32,000 nt of DNA from Candidatus Lokiarchaeum ossiferum (GTDB taxonomy: Archaea; Asgardarchaeota; Lokiarchaeia; Sigyniarchaeales; Promethearchaeaceae): NCBI GenBank assembly GCA_025839675.1, contig CP104013.1, forward strand, positions 2,400,001 through 2,432,000. Reading direction: 5' to 3'. The translations under genes were made by a program, and so were the position numbers. Below the pieces are notes generated by a model. It saw only the letters and a program-made list of their open reading frames with translations. It was not told where the DNA came from and did not search any database. Positions 5,794-23,898 of the stretch are shown here, one piece after another (the stretch's first letter is position 1; each line of letters starts with the position of its first letter).

Positions 5794-5828
5794 TACTTAG
5801 ATGTAAAAAATTTTTCATCGTTATTAAG

Positions 5829-9326: not shown

Positions 9327-9347
9327 AATTATAATAGTTGTGAGTCC

Positions 9348-9355
9348 TTAATAAA
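9348..9355 (-). promoter_or_regulatory. Candidate TATA box for the 5S rRNA gene
   Basis: The minus strand reads TTTATTAA, centred about 26 nt upstream of the predicted 5S 5' end. This is the canonical spacing for archaeal TBP/TFB promoters. Confidence 0.4.
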
Positions 9356-9400
9356 GATATTGATTTCCTCTTCCCGATATTTAAATTTTACGCCCCATTT

Positions 9401-9440
9401 AGAATTCCTCGCAAATTGGTAATATTTAGTTAGGAATTCT
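9401..9440. promoter_or_regulatory. 9-bp perfect inverted repeat AGAATTCCT-N22-AGGAATTCT upstream of the Lrp-like gene
   Basis: The arms at 9401..9409 and 9432..9440 are exact reverse complements, about 120-155 nt upstream of ATG 9557, in the shared intergenic region with the 5S promoter. Confidence 0.35.
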
Positions 9441-9556
9441 TTACGCAAAATTTTTTTTTATATAAAGCAAAACTCTTTACATAAAGTTATTTAAGTTACT
9501 TATAAAATATAAGAATTGAAGAAGTATTGTAAGATCGTGCTTGGTGAAGACTCTTT

Positions 9557-10102
9557 ATGAAAATAACAAAACTTGATGAAATAGACAAACAATTAATACA
9601 AATGTTGCAAGCTGATTCAAATATAACCCATAGCGAAATAGCGAAGAAATTGGACAGAAGTCAGCCAGCAATTGGTGCACGAATCAAAAAATTAACAGAA
9701 CAAGGCATTCTCGCAACTCAAATAGGCGTAGATTTCTCAAAAACGGAAATCAGTTCAATGTTAAATTTAGTAAAAGTTGAAATGACCACTTCCAAACCAG
9801 AAGTCGTTTTTGACATAGCTCAACACTGTCCTTATATTATAAATGCATTGAAAATGAGTGGTGAATATAATGTATTGCTTTTCATGGCTTGCAGTCGTTT
9901 AAAGCGGTTAGATATAATTTTAGATCGCCATTTTCGCAATCAACCCTATGTAAAAAAAATTCGGATGGACATTATTACCAGTTATGCAAAAGAATTTGTT
10001 TTACCGGTAGATTTTGAGTCAGAAAATTTTGATTCTCCTGATGATCAATGTCATGTCTCTAACTGTCCGTACTGTACCAATTTGGAAGATGAAAAGCAAT
10101 AA
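9557..10102 (+). CDS. Lrp/AsnC-like transcriptional regulator (HTH plus RAM-like domain) with a C-terminal Cys cluster
   Basis: N-terminal LDEIDKQLIQMLQADSNITHSEIAKKLDRSQPAIGARIKKLTEQGIL (AsnC-type HTH). Central VKVEMTT...ALKMSGEYNVLLFMAC (RAM/AsnC_trans_reg-like). Tail CHVSNCPYC. Confidence 0.75.
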   Translation: MKITKLDEIDKQLIQMLQADSNITHSEIAKKLDRSQPAIGARIKKLTEQGILATQIGVDFSKTEISSMLNLVKVEMTTSKPEVVFDIAQHCPYIINALKMSGEYNVLLFMACSRLKRLDIILDRHFRNQPYVKKIRMDIITSYAKEFVLPVDFESENFDSPDDQCHVSNCPYCTNLEDEKQ

Positions 10103-10300
10103 AAACATCCCATTTGTTTTTGTCTCAGAAAATTTTCCATTTATATCCAATTAAGTCCAACTTTTTCTTACTTTTTGAAATTGATTTGTTGAAAAACCCT
10201 TTCTTTTATGAAAAATAAAGCTTATGCTCAAAAATATTCCCCAAAATAAGAAATAGAGTTAAATGAAAAAAAATTATAAATTAGTTAAGGGCGATTAAAA

Positions 10301-10846
10301 ATGAAATACAATGAAATGCTTGATATTGATGAAACGGATAAAAAAATAATTTCAATATTACAGGAAGATCCCGAAACTACCCATTCTGCAATAGCTGAAA
10401 AAGTTCATAAATCACAACCCGCAGTTGGTGCTCGAATAATTAAATTACGACGCAAACACTTAATTACAGAAGCCGTCGGGGCCGAATTCAACCAACTAGA
10501 CTTAAAATTTGCTCGAATCGAATTATCTACTAAAAATGTTTCTAAAATTTGGGAACGCTTTAGAAGTTGTCCGCATGTGGTGAACTGTTTTAAAATGACA
10601 GGCGAGTTTAATTTAATGTTGGAAATTATTGCCCCCAACGTGAAAACAATTGAGCATTTTGTAGATTCATGTTTACGAAAAGATCCCCTTATACTTGATA
10701 TTAGAACAAACTTTGTAATTGATAGTTTACGGAAATATGTAGTACCCTTGTATTTTGAAATAGAAAAATATGAAGAATCCGGATGTTCTTATGAATGTGG
10801 GGGACCCATCACAAAAGCAGATTTGAAAGTACTCATGGATTCTTAA
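10301..10846 (+). CDS. Lrp/AsnC-like transcriptional regulator, paralogue of 9557..10102 with identical length (181 aa)
   Basis: DETDKKIISILQEDPETTHSAIAEKVHKSQPAVGARIIKLRRKHLI and CFKMTGEFNLMLEIIAP are colinear with the upstream paralogue. The C-terminal tail has GCSYECGG. Confidence 0.75.
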   Translation: MKYNEMLDIDETDKKIISILQEDPETTHSAIAEKVHKSQPAVGARIIKLRRKHLITEAVGAEFNQLDLKFARIELSTKNVSKIWERFRSCPHVVNCFKMTGEFNLMLEIIAPNVKTIEHFVDSCLRKDPLILDIRTNFVIDSLRKYVVPLYFEIEKYEESGCSYECGGPITKADLKVLMDS

Positions 10847-10856
10847 CCAAAAACGA

Positions 10857-11843
10857 TTAAATGTCGATTTCTTCTTCTTTTTTATATAATTCTACAGCCA
10901 ATTGTTTAAAAGCTTCATTCACTCCACGTCCTGTTTTTGCGGAACACTCCACATAAAGAAAACCATTTTGCTTAGCATATCTACGAGCTTCCTCTAGAGG
11001 AACCTTTCGCTCGAGGTCCGTTTTATTACCTATCAATAGCGTGGGAACTCTTAACCCTAGATGTTCTTCTAATTCATCAACCCACACTTGCAAATTTTTA
11101 AAAGAAATTGGATTGTTCACATCGTAACAAAGCAGAGCACCTTTAGCATCCCGATAATAAATCCCTCGAATTTTTTCATAGTGAGCTTGTCCAGCAGCAT
11201 CCCAGACATTGAGAGTCGCTTTAAAAGTCCGTGAACCATTAATGAATACATCGTCATCACTTAAATACTCACACGTAATTTCTTTAGATCCGAAATCAAC
11301 CCCTAAAGTGGTTTTTAAGTCCTTTTTAAAATAATTATCGGTGAATCTTACTTTAATGGCCGTTTTTCCAACAGCAGAATCACCAATTTCCACTATTTTA
11401 AAAGAATAATGGTTATGAAGTAAGGATTGCACTTCTTTTTTAGCCCACGGCCCGATGGTATCCCCAGAAATTAAATCTTCACGAATTTCAGTTATTTCTT
11501 CAAATTCAAGGAGAAAGCCTTTAGTATAAGTATCAACTTCCATGTATTCCAAGGCTTTTGTATTAATTGTTTTAATTTTTCCAGAACAAGGCGAATTTAG
11601 AGTAGTAATTCCTTTTTCAGTGACGATACTGGCAAACGGTTCATTTATTTTGATTTCATTTTCTACCAAAATTGTCACAATTTGTGGAGACGCTAAAAAT
11701 GCAAACCCAATTTGGTCCAAACCGATAAGTTTCTTATTTAAATCTAAATATACATGATGATTTTTAGAATAACTCAGATTTTCGGGAATATAATATCGAC
11801 CATTAGCTAGATAGACCATATACAAAATCAATATACACAACAT
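10857..11843 (-). CDS. Fusion protein: N-terminal GcvH-like (lipoyl-carrier-like) domain plus C-terminal Rab-like small GTPase
   Basis: Residues ~18-115 align colinearly by eye with glycine-cleavage H protein (IPENLSYSKNHHVYL / IGLDQIGFAFL / ASIVTEKGITTLNSPCSGKIKTIN / TYTKGFLLEFE). The lipoyl-Lys position is retained, with the same K-x7-P-x-SG spacing as E. coli GcvH. Residues ~150-328 are a canonical GTPase (GDSAVGKT, TLGVDF, WDAAGQ, NKTD, SAKTG). Confidence 0.8.
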   Translation of the reverse strand: MLCILILYMVYLANGRYYIPENLSYSKNHHVYLDLNKKLIGLDQIGFAFLASPQIVTILVENEIKINEPFASIVTEKGITTLNSPCSGKIKTINTKALEYMEVDTYTKGFLLEFEEITEIREDLISGDTIGPWAKKEVQSLLHNHYSFKIVEIGDSAVGKTAIKVRFTDNYFKKDLKTTLGVDFGSKEITCEYLSDDDVFINGSRTFKATLNVWDAAGQAHYEKIRGIYYRDAKGALLCYDVNNPISFKNLQVWVDELEEHLGLRVPTLLIGNKTDLERKVPLEEARRYAKQNGFLYVECSAKTGRGVNEAFKQLAVELYKKEEEIDI

Positions 11844-11891
11844 AGTTTAATAAAACATCTTATTGATGAAAAAATTCCATAAATATAAGAA

Positions 11892-13361
11892 TTGGCGAGT
11901 ATTTCTTTATTGAGAACAGTGAAACCCTTAGCGTTAAAAAAATGTCTTGATATTCTCCAGAATTATTTAGAATATCCCGCTTATTCCTTGGAATCCAGAC
12001 TTCATCATCGGGATGAAAAACAATTCATTGATCAGAATACATACTCGGAGATTCTAAACGACCTACGAGAGATTATGCGATGGTTAAATAAAATTCATTT
12101 CATCACTCAAAAAACCTTACGTGCTTTGAATTTGGATGCAATTACTTATCTACAGAGAGCAGAACTATACTATTCAGTATACTGCGTACATTGGAAGCAA
12201 ATCAAGGGTTTCACTCTGCAAAAAGAATTTGATGAATTTCATAAAACTATCCCAGACTATACGCATCCTAAATGGATTCCCCTTTTAACTCAGTTTTTAG
12301 AGAAAATTAGTCATTTTTCTTGGGAAATTGCCTTGAAAAATAAACCCTTGCCAGAAAAAATCAGCATATTGCAAGCAGTTCCTTCCTTTTTTGTAGAGCA
12401 TTTGTTGCCAGTAATGTCAGAAAAGAAAATTCAAGCCAATGCCAAAGCGATGAATCCTTTTAAAGATCAAAACTATATCGCACTTAGAATAGTACTTGAT
12501 AAGGGAAAGGATGAAACAGCGCTGAATGTGATCAGGGATGAATGTCTTCAATTTTTGCATCGAAGTAGGATTAAGACCAAACTTGATCCCGATATACCTT
12601 TTCTAATCCATATTCCACTGATTCAACGAAAACTTGTGTCAAAATCAAAATTCTATGAATCAAAAAAAGTAATTTTTCAAGATAAATCCGCGATAATCGC
12701 ATGCATACTTGTTGATCCGCAACCCTTGGAATTAATATTAGATGTTTCGGCATCTCCAGGGATGAAAACAAGATTAATCCAAGAATTGACCCAGTTTCAA
12801 AGTGTAATCATTGGCGGAGATATCCGTCGAGATCGGCTTAAAGCAACGGAAAAATTGTTAAATCAGATGGAAACACCAAATACCCATCTCATCCAATGGG
12901 ATGGAGCAAATTTACCTTTACGCATAGGTGACAATTTTCAACAACCAATATTTGATAAAATCTTGTTTGATGCACCATGCTCGGGTTCAGGTACATTTTT
13001 AAACGACCCTGAAATGAAGTGGCATCAAAATAAACATATTTTATTAAAAAATGTCATTATTCAAGAAAAAATTTTGAAACAACTGAAAAAATATATACAA
13101 TCGGGAACGACTTTGATCTATACAACTTGCAGTTTATATCCCGAAGAAGGAGAATATCAAATAAATAAATTAATAAATAAGCCATGGTTCAAAGAAATGA
13201 AACCTCAACCCTTAATGAAAGGCATTTCTCCTTCGTATTCGATTAATGATTCGCTAACAGCCATTTTATCATCTCCAGAAAAACAAATTATTGGATTAGG
13301 TCGAATTTTTCCAGCTAAACAACGTTCCCAAGGGTTTTTTTATGCTAAATTTAAGAAATAA
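11892..13361 (+). CDS. NOL1/NOP2/Sun (RsmB-like) RNA cytosine-C5 methyltransferase with a long N-terminal extension
   Basis: SAM-binding DVSASPGMKT, catalytic FDAPCSGSGT and LIYTTCSLYPEEGE motifs. The start is TTG in the track. Confidence 0.8.
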   Translation: MASISLLRTVKPLALKKCLDILQNYLEYPAYSLESRLHHRDEKQFIDQNTYSEILNDLREIMRWLNKIHFITQKTLRALNLDAITYLQRAELYYSVYCVHWKQIKGFTLQKEFDEFHKTIPDYTHPKWIPLLTQFLEKISHFSWEIALKNKPLPEKISILQAVPSFFVEHLLPVMSEKKIQANAKAMNPFKDQNYIALRIVLDKGKDETALNVIRDECLQFLHRSRIKTKLDPDIPFLIHIPLIQRKLVSKSKFYESKKVIFQDKSAIIACILVDPQPLELILDVSASPGMKTRLIQELTQFQSVIIGGDIRRDRLKATEKLLNQMETPNTHLIQWDGANLPLRIGDNFQQPIFDKILFDAPCSGSGTFLNDPEMKWHQNKHILLKNVIIQEKILKQLKKYIQSGTTLIYTTCSLYPEEGEYQINKLINKPWFKEMKPQPLMKGISPSYSINDSLTAILSSPEKQIIGLGRIFPAKQRSQGFFYAKFKK

Positions 13362-13399: not shown

Positions 13400-13636
13400 T
13401 TATTTCACACATTCGAAAAAGAGTTCCCAACCTTCATCATCATCTAAAATTTCAGTACCCAAAAATTTATGTTTAGTTTTGGCCAAATCTCGGGGAACGG
13501 ATTGACTAGCAGGTTTGTAATCGGTGATTACTTTTAAAATTTGTCCCGGTTGCATACTTCGCAATCGTTTTTTCGTCTTTAAAGCGGGGACTGGGCAAAC
13601 CAATCCACATGTGTCTAATTCTGCATCGAATTTCAT
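13400..13636 (-). CDS. tusA: TusA/SirA-family sulfur-carrier protein
   Basis: 78 aa. MKFDAELDTCGLVCPVPALKTKKRL carries the conserved CPxP persulfide-carrying Cys motif. Confidence 0.85.
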   Translation of the reverse strand: MKFDAELDTCGLVCPVPALKTKKRLRSMQPGQILKVITDYKPASQSVPRDLAKTKHKFLGTEILDDDEGWELFFECVK

Positions 13637-13669
13637 AGGTTATCACTTATTTATTTGTTTTTGAGAAAT

Positions 13670-13693
13670 AAAAAAAAACCGATTATTCATCGG
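13670..13693 (-). terminator. Short hairpin overlapping the stop codon of the FrhB::GltD gene, followed by T9
   Basis: The minus strand reads CCGAT-GAATA-ATCGG, then TTTTTTTTT. Oligo-T tracts are the main archaeal termination signal. Confidence 0.5.
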
Positions 13694-16130
13694 CTAAGGA
13701 AAAGATAGGCTCATCATCTTCAACAGCCATGACCAACTGACCTTTTTGTACTAAACGCAATGCGTTAAAGCGGACATCTTTCACTTTCATATCCAATTTC
13801 TCTCCTAAAGTACTTATTGATCCCGAGCCGTTGAGTTTTAGCCAATTATAGATTTTTTCACGGGGAGTATGAGAATGTTCAAGGATTCGACGTTTCATTT
13901 TCTTATCAATCGCCAGATCAACGGCTTCTTTGGATACAACGCCAGTCACTAATAGATCTGCTTTGAGCATTTCTTGAACAATTCTTTGAGCTCGCTTGGT
14001 CCAAATCACAACGGTTGTGAAATCTTTCTCAGAACCAATCTCACCAGCTGTAATATCAGCATGAATAGCAGCAAAATCTTGACAATGAGAACAAAATCGG
14101 TTACAATTAAAACAGCGGTTTGCTTCTTTAATTGCCATCGATTCATCAAAGATTCCATCAATTTCTTCAAAATTTCGCCAGATTGTTTGGATTTCTTCAG
14201 TAGGAGGTTTTTTCGATTTGTCCTTTGGTGGTAAAATTGGGTGGAAGAACATTTTCGATCGATTAATTCTCCCTTCTTTAAGATCTTGACCTCTCAAATA
14301 TCGATCAATCGATGTTGCAGCTTCTCTTCCATGAGCAATTGCTGCAACCGCCACATTTTTCCCACGCACAATAATATCTCCTCCGGCAAAGATTCCGGGA
14401 AGATTCGTTTCAAAGGTTATCTCATCCACTTTGATTTTACTTCGATCTTTCTCTAATTTTGACCCGCTTGCTTGGTCAATTAAATCTAGATCTCCAGTTT
14501 GTCCAATCGCGATGACAATTGCATCGACATCAAAACTATATTCTGAACCTTCAATTTTTTCAAAATTAGTGCGCCCATTTTCCCCAGGTTGTTGGGAAAC
14601 TTTATGACAATTAAATACTAAGCGACCATCGTCGGTTTGTGAGAATTTTTTAGTTGATGTATCATACTTATATTCAATAAATGGCATTTCTGCAGCAGGA
14701 ATCTCTTCACGAGCCATTTTTAATTGCTCTTCACTTCGGATTTCGACCATGATGGCCTTTTTAGCACCTAAACGAATTGCAGTTTGAGCAACATCAATGG
14801 CAACAGGACCCCCACCCAGAATTCCAACGGTTTTATCCTTGAATTCTTCGAGATTTTCCCAATAGCGATATTTTCTATCCACCAAAAATTCAACAGCAGT
14901 ATGAACATTGGGAAGATCTTCACCTTCCAATTTTAAGGTTAGAGGTTGATATTGACCTACAGCCAAGAAAATTGCTTCATAACCTTGATTTTTTAAATCT
15001 TCGAAGGTCAGGTCAGGTCCAATCGGACTGTTGAGTTTTACATCAACACCTGCTTGTTTTACGAACTCTACATCATAATCTAAGACCTCATCTGGCAAAC
15101 GGAATTTAGGAACCCCAAAGCGAAGCATTCCTCCAGTTTTATCAGATTTTTCAAAAATTGTAGGTTTATATCCCAATTGTGCTAAATAATAACTGGCTGT
15201 GAGTCCTGCTGGGCCTGAACCAATGATGGCCACTTTTTTATTGCCAGATTTTCCAGACTCAATAGGTATTTTACGCCCATGTTCCATTTCCCAATCAGTA
15301 ATATACTTCTTTAATTCCCGAATGGCAATCGGATGATTAGTTCCAATTAAAGTACAATTGTATTCACATTCATGAGTGCATACCCGTCCGCAAATTGATG
15401 GTAGAGGATTCATTTCACGAATCAAGTCAACAGCTTCTTGGAAATTGCCTTGGCGAATTTCGTTAATATATCCAGAAGCATCCACTCCAGCGGGGCAACT
15501 TCGTCGGCACGGTGAATAAATTTCGCCTTCTTCCGATTCACCTCCCCGAATATTTGCATTGCAAAATAGTCCAATTTTGAAAATTTCGGTGTTCATTTCG
15601 TCTTCAATACCTTTTGCACCTCGAATTTCGCATGGAACTCCAACAATACCAACGGGTCCATGATCAGCATCGCCCAATACTTCGACCATTTTTTCTAAAA
15701 CACCGGAGCGTCCATAGGAGACTCCAGAATATTTTCGAACATCATTTGGATCAGAGGTTATTACTGAAACAGGGCGACCATTCATACTTTGAACTTCCAC
15801 CAATTTCTTCACTTTTCCTGATTCCAAAAGATATTTATTTAAAGTAGTGACAAATCCACCACTTACGGCATTTCTATGAATATCTTCATCCGTAGATTTA
15901 AGCGCTAAAATATCTAGAGGTGTTTCCTTAGAGACTTTAGTCAAGCGTATTTGAGGACATTTACTATAGCATTTACCGCAAGCTTCCCCATCTCGTTCCA
16001 TAATACAGAAATCATCAAGAGTTGGTTTGAGATCTTCCATGATCAAATGTTTACATGATCCAGTGCACAATCCACAACCTTGACAAAGTCCTGGATTGAT
16101 AATTTCTTGTTTTAATAATCGAAAACTCAT
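13683..16130 (-). CDS. Multidomain flavo-FeS oxidoreductase: FrhB-N, inserted GltD/NfnB/SudA-like NAD(P)H-FAD module, FrhB-C, C-terminal winged-helix-like tail
   Basis: N-terminal CQGCGLCTGSC...AVSGGFVTTL...VGVPCEIRG...IGLFC (FrhB/FdhB N domain). The middle has CRRSCPAGVDASGYI...NPLPSICGRVCTHECEYNC plus VAIIGSGPAGLTASYYLAQLGY...GGMLRFGVPKFRLP (GltD/NfnB-type). Late CFNCNRFCSHCQDFAAIHADITAGEIG (FrhB C domain). The last ~70 aa resemble a wHTH. Confidence 0.8.
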   Translation of the reverse strand: MSFRLLKQEIINPGLCQGCGLCTGSCKHLIMEDLKPTLDDFCIMERDGEACGKCYSKCPQIRLTKVSKETPLDILALKSTDEDIHRNAVSGGFVTTLNKYLLESGKVKKLVEVQSMNGRPVSVITSDPNDVRKYSGVSYGRSGVLEKMVEVLGDADHGPVGIVGVPCEIRGAKGIEDEMNTEIFKIGLFCNANIRGGESEEGEIYSPCRRSCPAGVDASGYINEIRQGNFQEAVDLIREMNPLPSICGRVCTHECEYNCTLIGTNHPIAIRELKKYITDWEMEHGRKIPIESGKSGNKKVAIIGSGPAGLTASYYLAQLGYKPTIFEKSDKTGGMLRFGVPKFRLPDEVLDYDVEFVKQAGVDVKLNSPIGPDLTFEDLKNQGYEAIFLAVGQYQPLTLKLEGEDLPNVHTAVEFLVDRKYRYWENLEEFKDKTVGILGGGPVAIDVAQTAIRLGAKKAIMVEIRSEEQLKMAREEIPAAEMPFIEYKYDTSTKKFSQTDDGRLVFNCHKVSQQPGENGRTNFEKIEGSEYSFDVDAIVIAIGQTGDLDLIDQASGSKLEKDRSKIKVDEITFETNLPGIFAGGDIIVRGKNVAVAAIAHGREAATSIDRYLRGQDLKEGRINRSKMFFHPILPPKDKSKKPPTEEIQTIWRNFEEIDGIFDESMAIKEANRCFNCNRFCSHCQDFAAIHADITAGEIGSEKDFTTVVIWTKRAQRIVQEMLKADLLVTGVVSKEAVDLAIDKKMKRRILEHSHTPREKIYNWLKLNGSGSISTLGEKLDMKVKDVRFNALRLVQKGQLVMAVEDDEPIFSLADE

Positions 16131-16134
16131 TTTT

Positions 16135-17367
16135 TTAAGCCTCCATTTTAAATTCTGTAATAATTCCTTTCTGATCTAAAGAATATTGGATCTTTCCATG
16201 CTGAAAAGTTCCCGCTTGGGGTTCAAACACTTGATATTTATATGAATCAAAGTCATCTTCTCCCTTTATTGGAGTTTTAAATCCTCCAAAGAAGATATTT
16301 GAAAGATTCATATTTCCAGCAATTGATCGAATGGAATCACAAACACTTGAATAAGCGCTTCCATCTTGAGATTCAATAGCTTTGATCAAATCTTGTTCCA
16401 AAGATCGAAGTTTAATTCTGACTTCAGTAGTTTTGGGTTGGATTTCCATTTCAATTCCCTTTTCTAATGCTTCAATTGAATCAAGTGTAAGTGAAATTGC
16501 AGATTTTCCTCCACAACATCCCATAATTAAAGGTAATTCTTCAATTGGTCTTCCAAGATATATGTCCGTATTTAAATTACCCGAAGACTTTAAACGTCCA
16601 ATCGGCATTTGAGAATCGGCCAGTGTGAAACGGAAGTAATTTCCGGTGACATCAGGATTTGCTTCGGTGATATCATCATCAGCATCGGCTAACTTATCAG
16701 TTCCGCCTTTACCTGTTGCTTCGGTTGCAACTTCAATATTGCCCATCAGAGTTGCAAATAATGCCATCTGTCGCCAACCAGATCTTTCAACGGATGGCTT
16801 ACAGGCACGACAAGGGGCACCAAAATCAATACATCGTTCTTTACATTCCTTTGCAACATATCCAGCACACATAAATCCTAAATCATTGAAACATTGTTCT
16901 TCACCGTCTCCGAATTCTATTTGGCGATGGACTTCTTCTAAATAATCACAAGTTGATTTACGATTACAGGTTTCACAGAGATTTTTTACTCGAGTGGATA
17001 ACTTATTTTCTATTGTTTCTTCCAATGTATCGATCTCGCCCAAACATCCTGCGACCTCAGTTATTGAAGAATGAAGTAGTTTGAGAGGCATTACTTTAAC
17101 CCCGCGCTGATAATTCAATCCAAAAATACCTCCTGTGGTTGTGCACGATCCAAAAGCAATTACCCTATCTGAATTTGCACTAATCTTTTCAATTATGTTT
17201 TTATCATCTTCGAGAAGATACCCTGTTATAATTGCAACATTGAATTTTTCTTCTTTCCAAGTAGCGGGTTCTGGTATGCGAACGATTTCATATTTGTTGA
17301 GAAGTAAAGTCTCATCGAAGCATTTTGAACATCCTCGAAATTGAAAGATACCGAGTTTAAGGCTCAT
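16135..17367 (-). CDS. [NiFe]-hydrogenase small-subunit-like (MvhG/FrhG, Oxidored_q6-like) FeS protein with an uncharacterised C-terminal domain of about 200 aa
   Basis: FRGCSKCF, FGSCTTTGGIFG and VAGCLG resemble the proximal-cluster ligands. CFNDLGFMCAGYVAKECKERCIDFGAPCRACKPS resembles the medial/distal cluster region of group-3 small subunits. I did not recognise any family in residues ~200-410. Confidence 0.6.
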   Translation of the reverse strand: MSLKLGIFQFRGCSKCFDETLLLNKYEIVRIPEPATWKEEKFNVAIITGYLLEDDKNIIEKISANSDRVIAFGSCTTTGGIFGLNYQRGVKVMPLKLLHSSITEVAGCLGEIDTLEETIENKLSTRVKNLCETCNRKSTCDYLEEVHRQIEFGDGEEQCFNDLGFMCAGYVAKECKERCIDFGAPCRACKPSVERSGWRQMALFATLMGNIEVATEATGKGGTDKLADADDDITEANPDVTGNYFRFTLADSQMPIGRLKSSGNLNTDIYLGRPIEELPLIMGCCGGKSAISLTLDSIEALEKGIEMEIQPKTTEVRIKLRSLEQDLIKAIESQDGSAYSSVCDSIRSIAGNMNLSNIFFGGFKTPIKGEDDFDSYKYQVFEPQAGTFQHGKIQYSLDQKGIITEFKMEA

Positions 17368-17777
17368 TAGAAAGTTCCTCCAATTTCTTCTGCTTTTCCT
17401 AAGCGTTCCATTATATCTTCAAAATCTCCAGTAGCCGTGTCTCCTTCTGCGGCTCGAGCGGTGTAATGATTAATCATTTGATCACTATATCCCATTTCTT
17501 TGAAGAATTTTTTCATCAGCTTGATACGATGCATGGAGAGAAAATTGCCATTAAAAAAATGACAAGCGCCAAAACAACAACCAATCACCCCAACAGCATC
17601 TGCCCCATTGTTTAAGGCATCCATGATTTGAATAGGCCCCACTTGTCCGCTACATTTCACTCGAACAATTCGAATTGCGGGATCATAGGCAAGACGAGCC
17701 ACACCAGCAGTATTCGCAGCACCTTGGCCACATTCATCACACATGAAACATACAACATTTTTATTCTTAGTATCCAT
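17367..17777 (-). CDS. mvhD: MvhD/FlpD-type methyl-viologen-reducing hydrogenase delta subunit homologue (Hdr adaptor)
   Basis: VVCFMCDECGQGAA...RIVRVKCSGQV...GADAVGVIGCCFGACHF is the FlpD/MvhD pattern. GGAGG lies 8 nt upstream of the ATG. The start is 1 nt after the hdrA stop. Confidence 0.85.
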   Translation of the reverse strand: MDTKNKNVVCFMCDECGQGAANTAGVARLAYDPAIRIVRVKCSGQVGPIQIMDALNNGADAVGVIGCCFGACHFFNGNFLSMHRIKLMKKFFKEMGYSDQMINHYTARAAEGDTATGDFEDIMERLGKAEEIGGTF

Positions 17778-17778
17778 T

Positions 17779-19779
17779 TTAATTTCCTCCAGTTAAAGCG
17801 ATGATTTCATCATATAATTCATCTTCACGAGAATTTTTTACTTGAATAGCTCCCGTTGGGCACACTGGCTGACACATTCCGCAACCTTTACAAGCCACAT
17901 CTTTGATAACAACCTTTCCATCTTCGCGAGCAATTGCAACAGGACTACACACAGTAATACAAAGTCCGCAATTGACACATTTTGAATAATCAATGGTTGG
18001 AATAATCATTTCTTTCTCAACATAACCGCGCACGAGTGGTTGAGCTGCCAATGCAGCAGCACTTCCTGCTTGAGCTACAGTGGTAGTAATATCTTTTGGT
18101 CCTTGGATAGCTCCAGCCACAAAAATACCATCCTTCGATGACATGGTTGGATTCATTTTAATGTGCTTTTCTTTGAAGAAACCTTCCTTCGTTCGTAGTA
18201 CATGCAATTTTGAACTCAATATTCCAACACCTTTTGGAGGCACCATAGCTGCAGATAACACAACCATATCAGTAGGTATCTGCATAGGAGTTCGAGAGAG
18301 AGTATCTTCCACGAAAACTGATAACTTACCCGTTTTTGGATCTTTTGCAATTTCAGAAGGTCTTCCACGGATAAATTTCACGCCCATTTTTTGAGAATCT
18401 TTATAAAATTCTTCATAATTTAATCCAGGAGTTCGCATGTCAATGTAACAGATAATCACATCCGTATCGGGGAGCATATCTTTAATGATTTGTGCATTTT
18501 TATTGGCAAACATACAACATACCCCAGTACAATATTCAAAACCGACTTGCTCATTTCGACTGCCAACACATTGAATCATAACTACACGTTTTGGAACCTT
18601 ACCATCTGAAGGACGGAGGATTTCACTTCCAGTTAAAGATACGGGATTCATCATCCGTTCCAATTGGAGTTGAGTGATAACATCATCATACCCTTCTTGC
18701 TTGTAATGATATGGTGCGATTTCGGAAGGATCATACTCATCATAACCAGTTGCTACAACGATTGAACCAACTTTCACCTTTGTGATCTTTTTCTTCATGG
18801 AGAAATCGACAGCACCAACTGGACATATATTCACACAAGTTTGGCATTGAATACAATTTTTTTCATCACGCACGTAAGTGGAAGGAATTGCTTGTGGATA
18901 GAGTTTATATATTGCATTTCTTACAGCCATACCAGCATCCCATTCTGCAGGAACTTCAACAGGACAATTAGCAGCACATTCCCCACAAGAAGTACAATTA
19001 TCATGCACATATCGTGGATTCGTTTTAATTTTGGCAGTAAAATTTCCTAAGGATCCTTCAACTTCACCAACTAAAACACTATTTGTGTAAAGAGTTACAA
19101 GGGGATGATTCGCAACACCATTAGTAAGGGGTGAAATACTACATTGAGGACATTCATTTGTTGGAAAAGTTTTATTCAATTGAGTCATATGACCCCCAAT
19201 ACTAGATTGCCGTTCTACTAAATGAACAGGAACACCCAACTCAGCCAAATCACTAGCTGCACGCAATCCTGCAATTCCCGCACCAAGTACTAAAGCAGCT
19301 TTTGTCGTAGGAATTTGTTTGGTTTCAATACCCTCCAATTTTCGTGATCGGTTGATACCAGCTTTCATTATCTTGATAGCTTTATCGGTTGCTTTCTTCT
19401 TTTCCTTTTTATGAACCCAGCTGCAAAATTCACGAACATTGACTTGAAAATGAACATGTTTATTCAATCCTTCTTCTTCAATAGCTTTTGCAAAAGTTCG
19501 CCCATGTTGCATTTTTGAACAAGATGCTACTACCGTCCTATCGCATCCCATCTCATTCACAGCGTCCTTCACCATTTGAACTCCAGCTTTGGAGCACATA
19601 AACATATAATCTTGAGCGACTACCACATTGGGTAAATCTTTAACTTCTTCAATTACTTTTTTCACATCTACTGTGCCAGCAATATTGTGGCCGCAATGGC
19701 AAATGAAGACTCCGATCTTTGGATCTTTTTTAGTATCCATGGTTTGGGCAATATTTGAAATAGTTGTATCATCACTCAC
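17779..19779 (-). CDS. hdrA: Heterodisulfide reductase subunit A, long methanogen-type (FAD plus multiple FeS domains)
   Basis: N-terminal IGVFICHCGHNIAG Cys domain, FAD fold ALVLGAGIAGLRAASDLAELG, inserted ferredoxin CTSCGECAANCP/CIQCQTCVNICP and C-terminal ferredoxin CVNCGLCITVCS/CKGCGMCQPVCP. The GTG start overlaps the hdrB stop (GTGAGTGA). An alternative start is ATG 19740. Confidence 0.92.
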   Translation of the reverse strand: MSDDTTISNIAQTMDTKKDPKIGVFICHCGHNIAGTVDVKKVIEEVKDLPNVVVAQDYMFMCSKAGVQMVKDAVNEMGCDRTVVASCSKMQHGRTFAKAIEEEGLNKHVHFQVNVREFCSWVHKKEKKKATDKAIKIMKAGINRSRKLEGIETKQIPTTKAALVLGAGIAGLRAASDLAELGVPVHLVERQSSIGGHMTQLNKTFPTNECPQCSISPLTNGVANHPLVTLYTNSVLVGEVEGSLGNFTAKIKTNPRYVHDNCTSCGECAANCPVEVPAEWDAGMAVRNAIYKLYPQAIPSTYVRDEKNCIQCQTCVNICPVGAVDFSMKKKITKVKVGSIVVATGYDEYDPSEIAPYHYKQEGYDDVITQLQLERMMNPVSLTGSEILRPSDGKVPKRVVMIQCVGSRNEQVGFEYCTGVCCMFANKNAQIIKDMLPDTDVIICYIDMRTPGLNYEEFYKDSQKMGVKFIRGRPSEIAKDPKTGKLSVFVEDTLSRTPMQIPTDMVVLSAAMVPPKGVGILSSKLHVLRTKEGFFKEKHIKMNPTMSSKDGIFVAGAIQGPKDITTTVAQAGSAAALAAQPLVRGYVEKEMIIPTIDYSKCVNCGLCITVCSPVAIAREDGKVVIKDVACKGCGMCQPVCPTGAIQVKNSREDELYDEIIALTGGN

Positions 19780-20680
19780 TGGATTCGACCTCCACTGAAT
19801 TTAATTTGTACTCTTTCCCCATTTGTTGATATTGTAATCCAACAAATTTTTCATCCATACCCATACAATAGGCGGTGATTTGGGAGAGATGTAATACAGG
19901 ATAATCATAGTTTGTCTCATGATTTTTATTTAAATAATCTTGTCCAGTTTCAAATTGAAGATGACAGAAGGGACAAATATCTAAGATAAAATCAGGTTTG
20001 ACTTCATCAATATTCTCCATTTTGGCACCAAAGACAGTCATACTAGTTTCAGCATAGGCGGCTTTAATACCTCCACCAGCACCACAACAGGTAAGTTTAT
20101 CCCTAAAATCTAAAGATTTTAAGCCGAGAGCTTCGATGAAATCTTCCAAAATAACAGGATTTTCAGGATCATCGATTTCTCGCACCTCTGGAGGTTTAAG
20201 AAAATGACACCCATAATGAATGGCAACATTTCCATGAATTTTCCGAACTAAATAATCCTCAATTTCATAAGGTCCAATTTCCACAGCTAAAAATTCAGCG
20301 ATATGGCGTACATTAATCGTGCCTTGGAATTCATAATCCCCGAGTAGCTTTAATTTTTCATTCACTTCTGCCCGTGCGGCTTCATCCTTTTTTAAATGTT
20401 TATTAATATCAATTAAAGTGCCAAAACATCCATTACAGACAGTAATTAGGTCTACTCCTTGTTTTTCTGCAATACAGATGTTGCGAGCTCCTGCCACCAT
20501 CCAATCAAATTTATTGAAAGAACGTAAAACGCCTGGTGCAGGACAACAAGCAGCACGTTCCATTTCAGCAATACGATATCCCATTTTTTCGAGTAAGAAT
20601 CTCGTAGCCTTTTCAATTTGAGGATAACGATGGGGTGCTAAACATCCTAAATATAGCGCAAATGCTTTTTGTTCTGCCAT
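19772..20680 (-). CDS. hdrB: Heterodisulfide reductase subunit B (two CCG domains)
   Basis: AACCPAPG...VCNGCFG and LTCCGAGGG...ICPFCHLQF correspond to the duplicated CCG motifs that bind the non-cubane FeS clusters. Confidence 0.92.
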   Translation of the reverse strand: MAEQKAFALYLGCLAPHRYPQIEKATRFLLEKMGYRIAEMERAACCPAPGVLRSFNKFDWMVAGARNICIAEKQGVDLITVCNGCFGTLIDINKHLKKDEAARAEVNEKLKLLGDYEFQGTINVRHIAEFLAVEIGPYEIEDYLVRKIHGNVAIHYGCHFLKPPEVREIDDPENPVILEDFIEALGLKSLDFRDKLTCCGAGGGIKAAYAETSMTVFGAKMENIDEVKPDFILDICPFCHLQFETGQDYLNKNHETNYDYPVLHLSQITAYCMGMDEKFVGLQYQQMGKEYKLNSVEVESSE

Positions 20681-20681
20681 T

Positions 20682-21248
20682 CTATTTTACCTCTGTTAAT
20701 TTCTTTGCTTTTTTTTCATCTACGGGAACTAAATTAAATAAATTATCCGCATATTTCTTGAGTTCACTGTCTTCTTCGTTTTTATATTTAAATAGGGTAG
20801 GAGGAAGTTCATCTAATCCTAACTCAATCCGTTGAGCACGTATTTGATCATTAATTGGGACTGCATGTCCGGTTCCTTTTAAATAACCTACCACGGCCCG
20901 ATGAACGGGATGCAAGTTTCCAGCTTTCGCTGCATAATTTCGTAATTCCATAATCACATCGGTGGGACGCACATCTCGAGGACATCGTATATAACACTGA
21001 TAACATGTGGTACATAACCAGATATCTGGATCTTCGAGGACTGTAAGATCACCAAAGGCGGCTTTTCTAACGATTTCTCGAGTTTTCATTGCGGTCCATC
21101 GTCCACTTTCGCAGCTAGACGAACAAGTCCCACATTGAATACATGAAAAGATATTTGCTTTTCGAGCAATATCCTCAAATCGTTTGGGATCAAATTCGTC
21201 ATAGTTGACCAATTTTGTTTTCTTTGCGAGTTCTTTACTGAATACCAT
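20682..21248 (-). CDS. hdrC: Heterodisulfide reductase subunit C (2x[4Fe-4S] ferredoxin-like)
   Basis: CIQCGTCSSSCESG and CTTCYQCYIRCPRDV. The track start is TTG 21269. ATG 21248 (MVFSKELAKK) sits about 26 nt downstream of a TATA-like box, consistent with a leaderless transcript. Confidence 0.9.
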   Translation of the reverse strand: MVFSKELAKKTKLVNYDEFDPKRFEDIARKANIFSCIQCGTCSSSCESGRWTAMKTREIVRKAAFGDLTVLEDPDIWLCTTCYQCYIRCPRDVRPTDVIMELRNYAAKAGNLHPVHRAVVGYLKGTGHAVPINDQIRAQRIELGLDELPPTLFKYKNEEDSELKKYADNLFNLVPVDEKKAKKLTEVK

Positions 21249-21269
21249 TAAAACACCATTATTTTTCAA

Positions 21270-21279
21270 TTTATTAAAG
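21270..21279 (-). promoter_or_regulatory. Candidate TATA box of the hdrCBA-mvhD operon
   Basis: The minus strand reads CTTTAATAAA, 22-31 nt upstream of ATG 21248. Confidence 0.4.
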
Positions 21280-21298
21280 GAATGTATTATTATTTTGT

Positions 21299-21320
21299 TT
21301 GATTTGTTGTTGATTTGTTG
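21299..21320 (+). repeat. Perfect tandem duplication of the 11-mer TTGATTTGTTG just upstream of the hdrC promoter
   Basis: TTGATTTGTTG occurs twice in tandem at 21299..21309 and 21310..21320. The second copy extends to TTGATTTGTTGAAA, an identical 14-mer to 10181..10194. Confidence 0.7.
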
Positions 21321-21331
21321 AAAGCAAAAAA

Positions 21332-21862
21332 CTAGTGAGGTGTCGGGATCGAAACCCGCATGTCTTCTTTAACTTTCTGGAGTACAACTTGGGTGGTTAT
21401 CTCTTCAATCCCCTCAATTTTCTTCACTTTTTCGAGCAGATCGATTTGATTTTCTTTCTCGACACACTTGGCCATGCAAAAAATCGGTTGGTTACCCGAC
21501 ACTTGATAAATCGCATTGATTGCATCGATTGTTTGCAATTGACAGAGTGTATCTTTAATGCTCACGGAAGAGTTCACTTTGATAAAAAGTAAGAGCATTT
21601 CCCGATATCCAATTTTGCAACAATCCAATACAGCAATATAATCTTTGATAACGCCTTGATTCGTTAGGCGTTCAATATGATTTTTTATAGCGGAAATACT
21701 CGATTTAATCCCATATTTTTGTTCCAAGTGTTTCTCGATTTTCCGAAGAGAAGCTTTTCCATCTTCTTGTAAATAGGATAAAATCTTTCGATCTAATTCA
21801 TCTAAATCAATTTTTTCATGGGAAATTGCTTTTCCCGATTGAGCCGAAGTCTTTGACATCAT
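21332..21862 (-). CDS. Lrp/AsnC-family transcriptional regulator
   Basis: LDELDRKILSYLQEDGKASLRKIEKHL... HTH followed by a RAM-like domain (LLLFIKVNSS...YQVSGNQPIFCMAKC). Confidence 0.8.
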   Translation of the reverse strand: MMSKTSAQSGKAISHEKIDLDELDRKILSYLQEDGKASLRKIEKHLEQKYGIKSSISAIKNHIERLTNQGVIKDYIAVLDCCKIGYREMLLLFIKVNSSVSIKDTLCQLQTIDAINAIYQVSGNQPIFCMAKCVEKENQIDLLEKVKKIEGIEEITTQVVLQKVKEDMRVSIPTPH

Positions 21863-21884
21863 AGCACCTTTTTATGCGGTTATT

Positions 21885-21925
21885 AAAAAAAGAAGTGAAA
21901 ATAGATCGCACGAGCCTATTTCACT
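21885..21925 (-). terminator. Intrinsic-terminator-like hairpin plus U-tract between the DsrE3-like gene and lrp
   Basis: The minus strand reads AGTGAAATAG-gctcgtgcgat-CTATTTTCACT (10 bp stem, one bulge), followed by TCTTTTTTT. Confidence 0.5.
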
Positions 21926-21942
21926 GATAACAAGATTTATTC

Positions 21943-22368
21943 TTACAAGCTGATGATACCATCTGCACCGTCGCACATTTCCATAAAGGCTGCGGCACCG
22001 ACTGCAGGTTCAACAAAATCGAAAAGTTGTTCTTTCTTGATTGGGGGTATCATAAGATCCATAGTCATTGAACATGGGTAGAGTTTAATTTTTCCATCTT
22101 CAACCCCGTCTTTGACCATGTCCCACATATCATCATATCCAAAAGATTTCAATTTCTTTTTGAACATAGCTGCCGCCATTGATTTCATTGGAAAGGGCAT
22201 TCCAGCTACTTTTGGATTGAAACTTTTCTTTAACAAATGAAGACCCCAAAAGGTAAAGAAAAAGTTCATTTCTGTTTCCATTGCTGCTCCTGTTGTACCG
22301 AGGATAACCATCATTCCGAATTTTTCAAAAGAATTTTCGGAGACAATAAAATTTAATTTTTTAGGCAT
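21943..22368 (-). CDS. DsrE-superfamily protein of the COG2210 / DsrE2-DsrE3-like type
   Basis: KLNFIVSENSFEKFGMMVILGTTGAAMETEMNFFFTFWGLHLLKK and KLYPCSMTMDLM match the FFTFWGL...C-x-M-S/T-MD pattern of this family, including the conserved Cys. Confidence 0.75.
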   Translation of the reverse strand: MPKKLNFIVSENSFEKFGMMVILGTTGAAMETEMNFFFTFWGLHLLKKSFNPKVAGMPFPMKSMAAAMFKKKLKSFGYDDMWDMVKDGVEDGKIKLYPCSMTMDLMIPPIKKEQLFDFVEPAVGAAAFMEMCDGADGIISL

Positions 22369-22459
22369 TTTTTTTACTCAACCACGTTTTTTTTTTTTTG
22401 GATTGGAATCGAGTCCTTTATCCGGTAATGCATTTTATTATATTTAAAAAAAATATTGA

Positions 22460-22804
22460 TTATAACCAAGAGATAACTCGTTCGGCTGCATCGATTTTAT
22501 CGATCAATTCGGAATAAGTAATACTTTGAATACTAGCAATAACATTTTCAGAAATACCACCACGAGCTTCAACATCTTCCAACAAGTAAAATATCGGAAT
22601 GTTTTGTTGAATTAAACTATGATAAGGAGCATTTTCTTTGGTCATTTCGGCCCCCGTTGGTTTCATTAATCCATTTACACCATCTTCCATCAGAATTACT
22701 GCACACTCTTCTAAACCAATAACAAATTCAGCAAGATTTAGAGTAGGGCCTGATTCGAAACCACTTTGTCCATATAATATTAGATTTTTAACCATTTTCG
22801 ACAC
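22460..22804 (-). CDS. dsrH: DsrH/TusB-like subunit
   Basis: About 110 aa, last in the E-F-H order. MEDGVNGL and FYLLEDVEARG resemble the DsrH signature (eDGV...L..D..ARG). The start is GTG 22804 or ATG 22795. Confidence 0.65.
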   Translation of the reverse strand: MSKMVKNLILYGQSGFESGPTLNLAEFVIGLEECAVILMEDGVNGLMKPTGAEMTKENAPYHSLIQQNIPIFYLLEDVEARGGISENVIASIQSITYSELIDKIDAAERVISWL

Positions 22805-22807
22805 ATC

Positions 22808-23179
22808 CTATATATGAAAAACCGAGGCAAATTCCATCATAATTTTTGAAATTTCGCTCCGGCTGATTACTTGAATTGGAATTTCTTCAAATTCAAATAA
22901 CTCTTCTTTATTCATTCCTCGACGATTCATGTCTTCTTGGGTTACAATGATAGGTAATTCACTCAAATCAGCCATTTCCAACCCTTCTTCCATCGAATCC
23001 ATACCAATTTTTTCAACCATAAGATTATTTTTGACAGTTAACACAGCATCTCCATAAAGAAGAACCTTGCAATCAATATCTTCTCCTAATCCTAGATATC
23101 CTGCACCTAATCGAATTGCTTCATAAGCAGAATTGCTTCCAAAAGGACTTTTATTACATAATATCAAAACTGAATCCAT
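22808..23179 (-). CDS. dsrF: DsrF/TusC-like subunit
   Basis: VLILCNKSPFGSNSAYEAIRLGAG...KVLLYGDAVL is typical of DsrE/F-fold proteins. It holds the middle position of the trio. A GAGGTG Shine-Dalgarno element is present upstream. Confidence 0.7.
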   Translation of the reverse strand: MDSVLILCNKSPFGSNSAYEAIRLGAGYLGLGEDIDCKVLLYGDAVLTVKNNLMVEKIGMDSMEEGLEMADLSELPIIVTQEDMNRRGMNKEELFEFEEIPIQVISRSEISKIMMEFASVFHI

Positions 23180-23191
23180 TCCATTGCACCT

Positions 23192-23548
23192 CTATGCATG
23201 AGCTCCGAATGTAATGAGCTTATCTGCTTCTTTAGTCATATTTGACAGTTCCCCCAATCCAGCAATTTCTGCACCATCGATGATATTATCTGGATATACA
23301 GCATAATTATCCGCCCATGTTTGACAAGCCCACATCGGAACATCTTTTAAGGCTTCCAATGCTAAAGGAATGTTGCGTGTCGTTTTTCCAAGGATAATAT
23401 TTTTTTGAATGTTCAAAACACCAGTGCCGAAAAAGAAAATTCCAACTACAGTATGACCTTTTGCTTTAGCAGTCTCGATTAGCTTCAGCAAAGTATAGAT
23501 TTGTTCATACTTTAGGAATTCAGTCATCACGGTAAATCCGATTTTCAT
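23192..23548 (-). CDS. dsrE: DsrE/TusD-like subunit
   Basis: Colinear with DsrE: KGHTVVGIFFFGTGV, WACQTWA (Cys at the position of the DsrE active-site Cys) and IAGLGELSNMTKEADKLITFG. Confidence 0.75.
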   Translation of the reverse strand: MKIGFTVMTEFLKYEQIYTLLKLIETAKAKGHTVVGIFFFGTGVLNIQKNIILGKTTRNIPLALEALKDVPMWACQTWADNYAVYPDNIIDGAEIAGLGELSNMTKEADKLITFGAHA

Positions 23549-23582
23549 TTTTTTTTCCCTTCGAGTAGAATAGTAAAAAAAA

Positions 23583-23810
23583 TTAGTCTTTCTTTATCAG
23601 AAAAGTAAATACACCGTTATCTTCTTTGATATCCCCAACTAAACTACAACCCGTCTTGTTCAATAATGGTGGGACATCAGCCTTGGCTCCGCCATCATCG
23701 GCGATTAACTCAAACGTTTGTCCGGGTTCCATTTTCTTGATTACTTTTTTCGCTTTCAAGATTGGCATTGGACATTTTAACCCTTTTGCATCTAATGTAA
23801 AATCTGCCAT
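23583..23810 (-). CDS. tusA: TusA/SirA-family sulfur-carrier protein (second copy)
   Basis: MADFTLDAKGLKCPMPILKAKKVIKKM has the CPxP motif. ATG 23810 is chosen because it parallels the start of the other TusA (MKFDAELDTCGLVCPVP). The track ORF extends to 23873 with a 21-aa extension that is not TusA-like. Confidence 0.85.
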   Translation of the reverse strand: MADFTLDAKGLKCPMPILKAKKVIKKMEPGQTFELIADDGGAKADVPPLLNKTGCSLVGDIKEDNGVFTFLIKKD

Positions 23811-23898
23811 ATTTTTCACTTTTTTTTTTTTACCGAAAGTTTGATTTGCCCATGCGAAAAAAGACAAAACCATTTTTCGATCAGATAATATGAAACAC

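Follow-up and report, generated by a model that had tools for sequence, protein, structure and literature searches.

A GcvH-like domain fused to a Rab-like GTPase in Asgard archaea, and its recurrent proximity to Hdr gene clusters

Small GTPases of Asgard archaea are usually read as forerunners of the eukaryotic membrane-trafficking switches, and to our knowledge almost none of them has a known partner. A gene of Candidatus Lokiarchaeum ossiferum brings the matter of partners into focus. Located in a stretch of 32,000 nucleotides (nt) of contig CP104013.1 (positions 2,400,001 to 2,432,000; hereafter the window), it encodes a single polypeptide of 320 amino acids (aa) in which a domain resembling GcvH, the H protein of glycine cleavage, is followed by a Rab-like G domain, and it lies near a cluster of hdr, dsrE and tusA genes. 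This raises the question of whether the GcvH-like domain is a working lipoyl arm that serves the neighbouring Hdr system under GTPase control, as an initial interpretation made from the letters of the window (the sequence-only reading) had suggested, or whether it has taken on another role. The answer that we favour, at about even confidence, is a pseudo-carrier docking domain mounted on a GTP switch and probably tied to Hdr complexes.

Architecture and distribution of the fusion family

The same domain pair, which the sequence-only reading had proposed to look for in other genomes, turned up many times over: full-length searches across NCBI, JGI, ENA and Logan assemblies returned more than 100 protein clusters of 315–325 aa, each with a query coverage of 95% or more. 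The family is specific to Asgard archaea and is known from Loki-, Hel-, Hod- and Sigynarchaeota, the complete chromosome of Promethearchaeum syntrophicum MK-D1 included, and its named hosts include P. syntrophicum and L. ossiferum (two paralogues each), Harpocratesius, and Hel-, Hod- and Sigynarchaeota. Nineteen full-length loci come from species-representative genomes, with typically two per genome. Heimdall-, Thor- and other Asgard lineages gave matches to the G domain only, without the N-terminal domain; inteins, considered for Heimdallarchaeota Rab matches that span 1.3 kb, were rejected in favour of tandem Rab genes, and another GTPase encoded on locus L080 was rejected as a family member. 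Members share the pattern 'MV..DGRYELP...IGLDQIG...GITTL.SP(C/V)SG...Y..G...LI.G..IE.WA..E' followed by 'GDSAVGKTAIKVRFTD.YFKKDLKTTLGVDFG' over about 320 aa, which the window protein fits, and the sequence of the domain junction is conserved across the family. A weak PF01597 (GCV_H) match is already visible in the databases on some of them, about 20 members bearing precomputed matches.

The open reading frame (ORF) as listed runs from 10857 to 11843 on the minus strand (328 aa, with an in-frame upstream ATG at 11843). Its start codon is probably M9 of that frame, at 11819; the coding sequence is best set at 10857..11819 because all homologues open with 'MV' and because a TATA-like element, TTTTATTAAA, lies 27–37 nt upstream of this ATG. 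An NCBI-annotated 320-aa 'GTP-binding protein' of Candidatus Lokiarchaeum ossiferum is 100% identical to the product. Residue numbers refer to the 320-aa form, and structural features to AlphaFold2 (AF2) models where indicated. The features of the gene are the following.

10857..11819, minus strand: coding sequence of the GcvH-like/Rab-like fusion, 320 aa plus stop
11418..11819, minus strand: GcvH/LbpA-fold domain, residues 1–134, including the C-terminal helix 119–133 (hhalign, PDB profile, AF2/Foldseek)
11580..11639, minus strand: former lipoyl hairpin PFASIVTEKGITTLNSPCSG, residues 61–80, with modelled strands at 61–67 and 70–75 (AF2)
11613–11615, minus strand: K69, the Lys at the lipoyl position, at the tip of the beta-hairpin
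10884..11411, minus strand: Rab-like G domain, residues 137–312 (Pfam Ras, E 5.9e-48; PDB sequence and Foldseek matches)
11361..11384, minus strand: G1/P-loop GDSAVGKT, residues 146–153, with G146, D147, G151 and K152 invariant
11289..11348, minus strand: switch I region RFTDNYFKKDLKTTLGVDFG, residues 158–177, nearly invariant across the family
11220..11279, minus strand: lengthened beta2-beta3 (interswitch) hairpin, which exceeds that of a Thorarchaeota Rab by about 11 residues, as judged from gaps against 7EZB
11187..11201, minus strand: G3 DAAGQ with the catalytic Gln, residues 207–211 (sequence motif)
11016..11027, minus strand: G4 NKTD, residues 265–268 (sequence motif)
10935..10943, minus strand: G5 SAK, residues 293–295 (sequence motif)
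10860..10883, minus strand: C-terminal tail KKEEEIDI, with no Cys

The GcvH similarity of the N-terminal domain, which the sequence-only reading had described as a colinear alignment and had proposed to check by profile and structure, is real and far above chance, five independent lines concurring. Pfam GCV_H matches residues 25–115 of the ORF with an E-value of 0.0032 and 17.8 bits, so that this sequence falls short of the 22.2 bits set as gathering threshold. An exhaustive phmmer search of residues 1–134 against 1.84 billion representative proteins recovered family members and then, at E-values of about 1e-4, genuine PF01597 proteins of 131–151 aa aligned end to end. A word-seeded protein search with the isolated domain gave no match at E ≤ 0.01, although more than 100 close members reside in the same database; exhaustive and full-length searches recover them. 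A profile built from 39 N-terminal domains aligned with a small GcvH alignment over 130 columns (hhalign probability 99.8%, E 1.8e-28), and against all PDB sequences this profile ranked H-proteins best (E 2.8e-6); a single lipoyl-bearing E2 chain scored among them at 3.3e-5, and weaker lipoyl and biotinyl domains came next. The AF2 model of the domain has a predicted local distance difference test score (pLDDT) of 93.4 and a predicted template-modelling score (pTM) of 0.86, and every one of its top 22 Foldseek matches in the PDB is an H-protein or GcvH-L (E 1e-6 to 5e-4; template-modelling (TM) scores 0.6–0.77), biotinyl/lipoyl domains appearing only above E 0.03. Thus an H-protein fold was scored by profile and by structure alike, and we regard the architecture and homology of this GcvH-like/Rab-like protein as close to certain.

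With GcvH (PF01597) the domain shares its fold and, in colinear order, 'Y(S/T)..H', the hairpin, 'P.SG', 'Y..G' and the C-terminal helix. It differs in that the family has neither a conserved lipoyl-Lys nor the Glu at position –3, in the attached GTPase, in a window sequence that falls below the Pfam gathering threshold, and in the lack of glycine-cleavage P, T or L genes near the fusion gene. A parallel is offered by GcvH-L of Streptococcus pyogenes (5A35) and S. aureus, a divergent GcvH paralogue recruited outside glycine cleavage and a fold match at rank 20; in contrast to the fusion it is standalone and bacterial, and it is reported to be still lipoylated (PMC12440151).

The C-terminal part is a complete Rab/Ras-type G domain, as the sequence-only reading had recognised from its DxxGQ and NKxD motifs. 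The protein has G1 to G5 in full, and among 43 members the residues of these motifs are for the most part invariant or close to it, the switch I Thr being T171; the conservation profile further reveals a near-invariant switch I peculiar to the family, 'RFTD.YFKKDLKTTLGVDFG'. The best PDB sequence match is a Thorarchaeota Rab (7EZB, E 5.9e-37), ahead of Rab11, Rab2 and Ypt31, and by structure Foldseek returned Rab2, Rab11, Rab8 and Rab27. With the Thorarchaeota Rab (7EZB; PMC10933270) the G domain is 38–40% identical and has all G motifs and no prenylation motif in common; the fusion differs by its added 134-aa GcvH-fold domain, its longer beta2-beta3 hairpin, around which model confidence is low (pLDDT 54–80 over residues 160–200), and its family-specific switch I. 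It resembles eukaryotic Rab11, Rab2, Rab8 and Rab27 in the G domain and does not share their C-terminal Cys prenylation feature: a Rab-type motif (CC, CXC or CAAX) was looked for at the C-terminus and found neither in the window protein, whose Cys residues lie solely at 78, 183, 231 and 292, nor in the tail of the family consensus.

No PDB entry spans both domains (TM score normalised to the query, TMq, ≤ 0.51). In the full-length AF2 model (pLDDT 88.9, pTM 0.67) helix 119–133 of the GcvH-like domain runs into beta-1 of the G domain (residues 137–145) with about three linker residues, so modelled a rigid junction rather than a flexible tether.

The former lipoyl site

Lipoyl carriers are defined by their Lys, and here the sequence-only reading was right in its observation: K69 sits at the hairpin tip in the K-x7-P-x-SG register of E. 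coli GcvH, and it is also found in an orthologue of 89% identity. That reading had further named variation of the Lys among orthologues as telling against a carrier, and such variation is what we found. Among 110 distinct family members the column holds K in 12, N in 26, Q in 19, R in 18, S in 10, T in seven, I in five and other residues in 13; a smaller alignment gave Lys in five of 43. In the small clade to which the window gene belongs the residues at this position are K, K, R and N, and the Hdr-adjacent clade has Q, S, A or T and no Lys. At –3 of the lipoylation motif, where the reference GcvH alignment has an invariant Glu, the family has variable residues in place of the Glu.

LbpA, the GcvH-like lipoate-binding protein of sHdr-type sulfur oxidation, differs on this count, all 95 LbpA proteins sharing a strictly conserved Lys (Cao et al., 2018, PMC6067878); nor does the fusion have the pair of conserved Cys found in most LbpA, C78 being the sole Cys of its N-terminal domain. 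C78 lies within 'SPCSG', in a column that holds Cys in 74 of the 110 members, Val in 30 and Ile in six, the last two taking in all Helarchaeota-type proteins. Asgard archaea, P. syntrophicum among them, have a LipS1/S2-type lipoate assembly (PMC10332631). Lipoate ligase (LplA) and LipS-type radical-SAM genes, whose co-occurrence the sequence-only reading had proposed to check, are both missing from the 32-kb window, as is a standalone GcvH gene.

The conservation profile ranks 'PFA.I.T' and 'GITTL.SPCSG', the strands on either side of the tip, with the most conserved segments of the domain; the hairpin is under constraint though its tip residue varies. We conclude that the fusion family very probably does not consist of lipoyl carriers. 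The K69-bearing window protein is itself probably not one, and we give its lipoylation a small chance.

Hdr neighbourhoods and the origin of the carrier domain

Upstream of the fusion gene and co-directional with it lies a cluster that we call 'Hdr1'; it is context and no part of the gene.

11846..11856, minus strand: TATA-like TTTTATTAAA, a possible promoter element that would give a monocistronic transcript
11892..13361, plus strand: RsmB/F-type methyltransferase gene that separates the fusion gene from tusA (Pfam, E 1.6e-37)
13400–13636, minus strand: the TusA gene nearest the fusion gene (Pfam)
13400..23873, minus strand: the 'Hdr1' cluster (Pfam)

The geometry was as first described, with tusA on the same strand some 1.5 kb away (1,557 nt from the fusion ORF) and only the oppositely oriented RNA methyltransferase gene between. 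The divergent intergenic region common to the fusion gene and the RsmB-like gene measures 72 nt and contains the TATA-like element. In order of transcription 'Hdr1' reads tusA, dsrE, dsrE, dsrH, dsrE2, asnC, hdrC, hdrB, hdrA, mvhD, an Oxidored_q6-like gene (410 aa), an frhB/gltD fusion (815 aa) and tusA. The sequence-only reading had linked the locus to sHdr/LbpA-type sulfur oxidation, and this link did not hold. The window HdrA is 666 aa long and matches methanogen HdrA 5ODC over its full length (E 2.5e-190), sHdrA 6TJR matching residues 333–584 only, and the cluster holds a single hdrCB pair together with mvhD. An sHdr identity was rejected on the strength of the methanogen-type, full-length HdrA and of MvhD, and gene content points to an HdrABC-MvhD-type cluster decorated with sulfur-relay proteins. 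LbpA loci are differently built: an sHdr cluster with short sHdrA (hdrC1B1-A-hyp-hdrC2B2) is accompanied by dedicated LplA and LipS1/S2, whereas the window has HdrABC-MvhD without these. Considered apart from the fusion gene, 'Hdr1' shows features of a bifurcating Hdr alongside sulfur transferases in the style of sHdr systems (DsrH, two TusA and three proteins of the DsrE family), and its dsrE/tusA/hdrCB part is kept in Promethearchaeum at 63–86% identity (L007, 1–4924; L010, 122–4025).

Does the proximity recur? Window proteins were searched against the 19 full-length loci, all neighbouring ORFs were clustered, and a neighbour-joining tree yielded three groups. In clade B the genes hdrC-hdrB-hdrA-mvhD-fer4 immediately precede the fusion gene, on its own strand, in four species of Promethearchaeum (L006, L007, L009, L010); in three further taxa (L014, L015, L080), the second paralogue of L. 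ossiferum among them, the fusion gene is divergent from such a cluster. The flanking thus extends to seven species in two orientations. In MK-D1 (L007) the orthologue of the window's 'Hdr1'/DsrE cluster also adjoins the clade-B gene, divergently. The sister-species locus L095 (89% identity) keeps the order frhB/gltD, tusA, ..., fusion gene, asnC, asnC, all co-directional; the RsmB-like gene is absent at that position, where a 205-aa Zn-ribbon protein and an AsnC regulator are encoded instead. In the deep-branching L017 (Lokiarchaeote CR_4) a fusion member flanks an hdrC-hdrB pair inside a segmental duplication. The association with Hdr genes in other genomes that the sequence-only reading had asked after is thus present, and the recurrent tie between a GTPase family of the Asgard 'eukaryotic signature' kind and Hdr clusters is real at the genomic level and unexpected.

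Several observations accompany these loci. A conserved ORF of about 170 aa, c5, follows directly after every clade-B fusion gene (L007, 10966–11484; also L006, L009, L010, L011, L014, L015, L081) and is tandemly duplicated in L009 and L010. Its invariant motif is '...FIAAL.(M/I)FGEE...I.RI.I.G...E...'; no Pfam or PDB-profile match was obtained, so that an impression of roadblock/longin identity gained from the sequence went unsupported, and we regard c5 as a candidate GTPase partner. In L017 the fusion gene and the gene of an M20-type peptidase lie between the two copies of the duplication (3576–6053 and 8553–10474), which comprises a membrane protein, a metallo-beta-lactamase-like ORF and the HdrB C-terminal half; the contig has runs of N, and the duplication may be an assembly artefact. 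A Cys-rich protein of repeated zinc-ribbon-like 'C..C...H.C' units, c12, is encoded directly upstream of genes of clade A (L002, 9200–9709; L003; L004) and adjoins hdrC in L017 (11162–11833), a possible vestige of an ancestral c12-hdrCB-fusion neighbourhood. The window's small clade comprises the window protein (W), P0002, P0003 and L001; on L001 (353–2454), an uncultured Lokiarchaeial contig, window-type and clade-B paralogues are divergent neighbours 176 nt apart, an arrangement consistent with an origin of the window-type gene by local duplication.

Around the gene itself, the genes just downstream encode a plain Rab-like GTPase of 181 aa and, in tandem, two regulators of the AsnC/Lrp family (8511–9056, 9557–10102 and 10301–10846). 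The stop codon of the second regulator gene, AsnC2, lies 10 nt from that of the fusion gene in convergent orientation, an arrangement kept in L095, and an AsnC2 orthologue also adjoins in L001. Elsewhere, and unrelated, the window encodes a fusion of FHA with an NYN/Zc3h12a-type RNase (2280–3425, minus strand) and a large histidine kinase in which three PAS domains are combined with a receiver domain (27692–30082, plus strand).

Among the closest relatives of the N-terminal domain, too, several are encoded beside Hdr genes. The family hidden Markov model of this domain scores a clade of standalone Asgard proteins at 70–81 bits, other archaeal GcvH-like proteins at 60–68 and bacterial GcvH below 55. 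These standalone proteins share with the fusion the start 'MV..G(Y/F)E(L/V)PD.LYY' and the C-terminal helix 'LI.G..(I/L)E.WA..E', and like LbpA they are GcvH-like proteins, several of them encoded beside HdrB/HdrC genes; both they and LbpA keep the Lys strictly, which the fusion family does not. The E-A-G-K-G motif, Glu at –3 included, is kept in the eight of nine relatives for which the motif was read.

Three of the five standalone relatives examined sit in hdrC-hdrB-gcvH operons: P0136 (L083, 3185–5052), and P0159 and P0160, annotated as GcvH of 'Promethearchaeota archaeon' (L089, 4639–6447, where stop and start codons overlap; L090, 3612–6423). Arf/Ras-like GTPase genes occur 2–3 kb away in two of these three loci (L083, L090). 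The low-GC members P0162 and P0165 are not linked to Hdr. Two matches lie among lipoate genes: P0141, a significant match of the N-terminal domain, is a bona fide LbpA in an sHdr-like cluster (L086) with LplA and LipS-type radical-SAM genes, and P0139 is encoded between LplA and a radical-SAM gene. The operons belong to Asgard metagenome-assembled genomes of 55–61% GC, and the GcvH-like protein that they encode retains the lipoyl-Lys; such Lys-bearing operons, unexpected in Asgard archaea, suggest a lipoyl-protein/HdrBC redox couple, with lipoyl-protein/HdrB chemistry reaching beyond the sHdr sulfur oxidisers. The HdrB of the clade-B-linked cluster is 42–45% identical to the operon-type HdrB versus 35–37% to the window type, and the HdrC and HdrB of L017 are 53% and 49% identical to their counterparts in L083.

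By these relationships the fusion's N-terminal domain descends from the Asgard GcvH/LbpA-like carrier clade. In the simplest history, an Hdr-coupled Asgard lipoyl carrier would have been joined, within the Loki/Hel lineage, to a Rab-like GTPase encoded close by; the fusion would then have lost the lipoylation motif and been duplicated, and some paralogues would have kept their place beside Hdr genes.

A carrier fold on a GTP switch

We read the N-terminal domain as a pseudo-carrier, a protein-docking module, because the Lys varies freely and the Glu at –3 is gone while the H-protein fold and the hairpin are kept. The GTP/GDP state of the Rab-like domain would control, or be reported through, docking of the carrier-shaped domain on a partner that recognises lipoyl-type carriers, the likeliest being the HdrB/HdrC part of adjacent Hdr complexes; a nucleotide switch would in this way regulate, assemble or position an Hdr-type redox complex. 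We infer both the docking on Hdr and this outcome. A present-day functional tie of the fusion protein to Hdr seems to us slightly short of an even call. The more specific proposal, that under GTP control the domain, carrier-shaped but Lys-less, serves as decoy or adaptor on the HdrB/HdrC docking site, or as a bridge to another partner, and so switches or positions the electron-bifurcating HdrABC-MvhD complex, is possible but taken by itself unlikely.

A number of points weigh against this interpretation. The window gene shares no operon with Hdr: it has its own upstream region, and the divergent RsmB-like gene stands in between. Clade-A genes (L002–L005, L008, L012, L013, L094) are found among RtcB, M18 aminopeptidase, two SIS-like genes and Orc1/Cdc6, and Helarchaeota copies (L018, L019, L082) likewise have no Hdr neighbours, so that the family clearly functions without Hdr adjacency. 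The adjacency could be synteny inherited within one class rather than maintained by selection, and it is from synteny and homology that an Hdr interaction is proposed. The window protein does hold a Lys at the hairpin tip in a group of organisms equipped for LipS1/S2-type lipoate assembly (PMC10332631). Finally, with a full-length pTM of just 0.67 the inter-domain geometry is not established.

The alternative that survives best, doubtful on balance yet deserving a place beside the pseudo-carrier proposal, is that the domain is a generic accessory module like the longin/roadblock domains on other Asgard GTPases, intrinsic to the GTPase and serving dimerisation, autoinhibition or unrelated effectors, with Hdr synteny as a relic of the site at which the fusion came about. 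Members without Hdr neighbours (clade A, Helarchaeota) fit it readily, the Arf/Ras-like genes near hdrCB-gcvH (L083, L090) would give a simple route to the fusion by local rearrangement, c5 could be the true partner of clade-B proteins, and accessory-domain fusions are common among Asgard GTPases (PMC10933270; bioRxiv 10.1101/2020.10.19.343400). A relic is harder to reconcile with Hdr adjacency that survives at least four arrangements (same strand, divergent, L017 type and window/L095 type) in at least seven species-level genomes, and a generic module with a hairpin region, the part that carriers insert into partner enzymes, that is still among the most conserved of the domain.

The arm first proposed, lipoylated or persulfide-carrying and gated by the GTPase for delivery to Hdr, has little probability. 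It would account for K69 at the exact lipoyl position in the window protein and its closest orthologue, for the lipoate assembly genes in the organism group (PMC10332631), and for relatives that are Hdr-coupled carriers. It fails on the rarity of the Lys (12 of 110; K, K, R and N in the window's own clade and none in the Hdr-adjacent clade), where LbpA conserves it strictly (PMC6067878), and on the missing Glu; moreover, the neighbouring system is HdrABC-MvhD and not sHdr, the window has no LplA or LipS gene, and the modelled junction is rigid.

Lower still in probability is a thiol or redox sensor, in which C78 would sense redox state or sulfane sulfur and couple the state of the DsrE/TusA/Hdr relay to the GTPase switch. 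The Cys occurs in essentially all Lokiarchaeial Hdr-linked members within its 74 of 110, and TusA and DsrE persulfide carriers are encoded in the neighbouring cluster; against this, 36 of 110 members, all Helarchaeota-type proteins among them, have Val or Ile, GcvH has Val at that position so that the Cys may be a neutral core substitution, and a lone Cys in the domain has no partner thiol. A frameshift or misassembly joining gcvH and Rab genes, for which the sequence-only reading would have expected a fusion unique to this assembly, has negligible probability, the same architecture, length (315–325 aa) and conserved junction recurring in more than 100 clusters from NCBI, JGI, ENA and Logan, independent assemblies that include the complete MK-D1 chromosome and the L. 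ossiferum record.

How does the fusion relate to what has been described of Asgard GTPases? Papers on these proteins describe longin and roadblock fusions, not GcvH-Rab (PMC10933270; bioRxiv 10.1101/2020.10.19.343400; PMC12962969), and a targeted search of full-text literature, with the supplementary tables of asCOG-type surveys outside its range, found no description of a GcvH-Rab architecture or of a link between Hdr and small GTPases. The Rag-like longin/roadblock fusions (PMC10933270; bioRxiv 10.1101/2020.10.19.343400) are similar in joining a small GTPase to a small alpha/beta accessory domain, in being lineage-restricted and in having expanded by paralogy. Here, by contrast, the source of the accessory domain is a metabolic family of cofactor carriers rather than the trafficking-associated roadblock/longin superfamily, and the neighbourhood is a redox enzyme cluster.

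The family gives a concrete candidate class of partner for an Asgard GTPase, namely Hdr-type redox complexes, and offers a class of mechanism, the reuse for docking of a carrier domain without its cofactor site. Should the link to Hdr fail, what remains would still be a clean case of domain exaptation and a correction to the over-interpretation of such proteins as a lipoyl arm plus GTPase. If the decoy or adaptor proposal is true, a Ras-superfamily switch would be wired to energy metabolism rather than to membrane traffic, and this would be the first pseudo-lipoyl-carrier regulator; for the first time, too, a GTPase of the Asgard 'eukaryotic signature' set would have a defined target in metabolism. 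And if the Hdr link itself is true, part of the expanded Asgard GTPase repertoire would regulate core anaerobic energy metabolism, and the 'eukaryotic signature proteins' of these archaea would have to be read differently.

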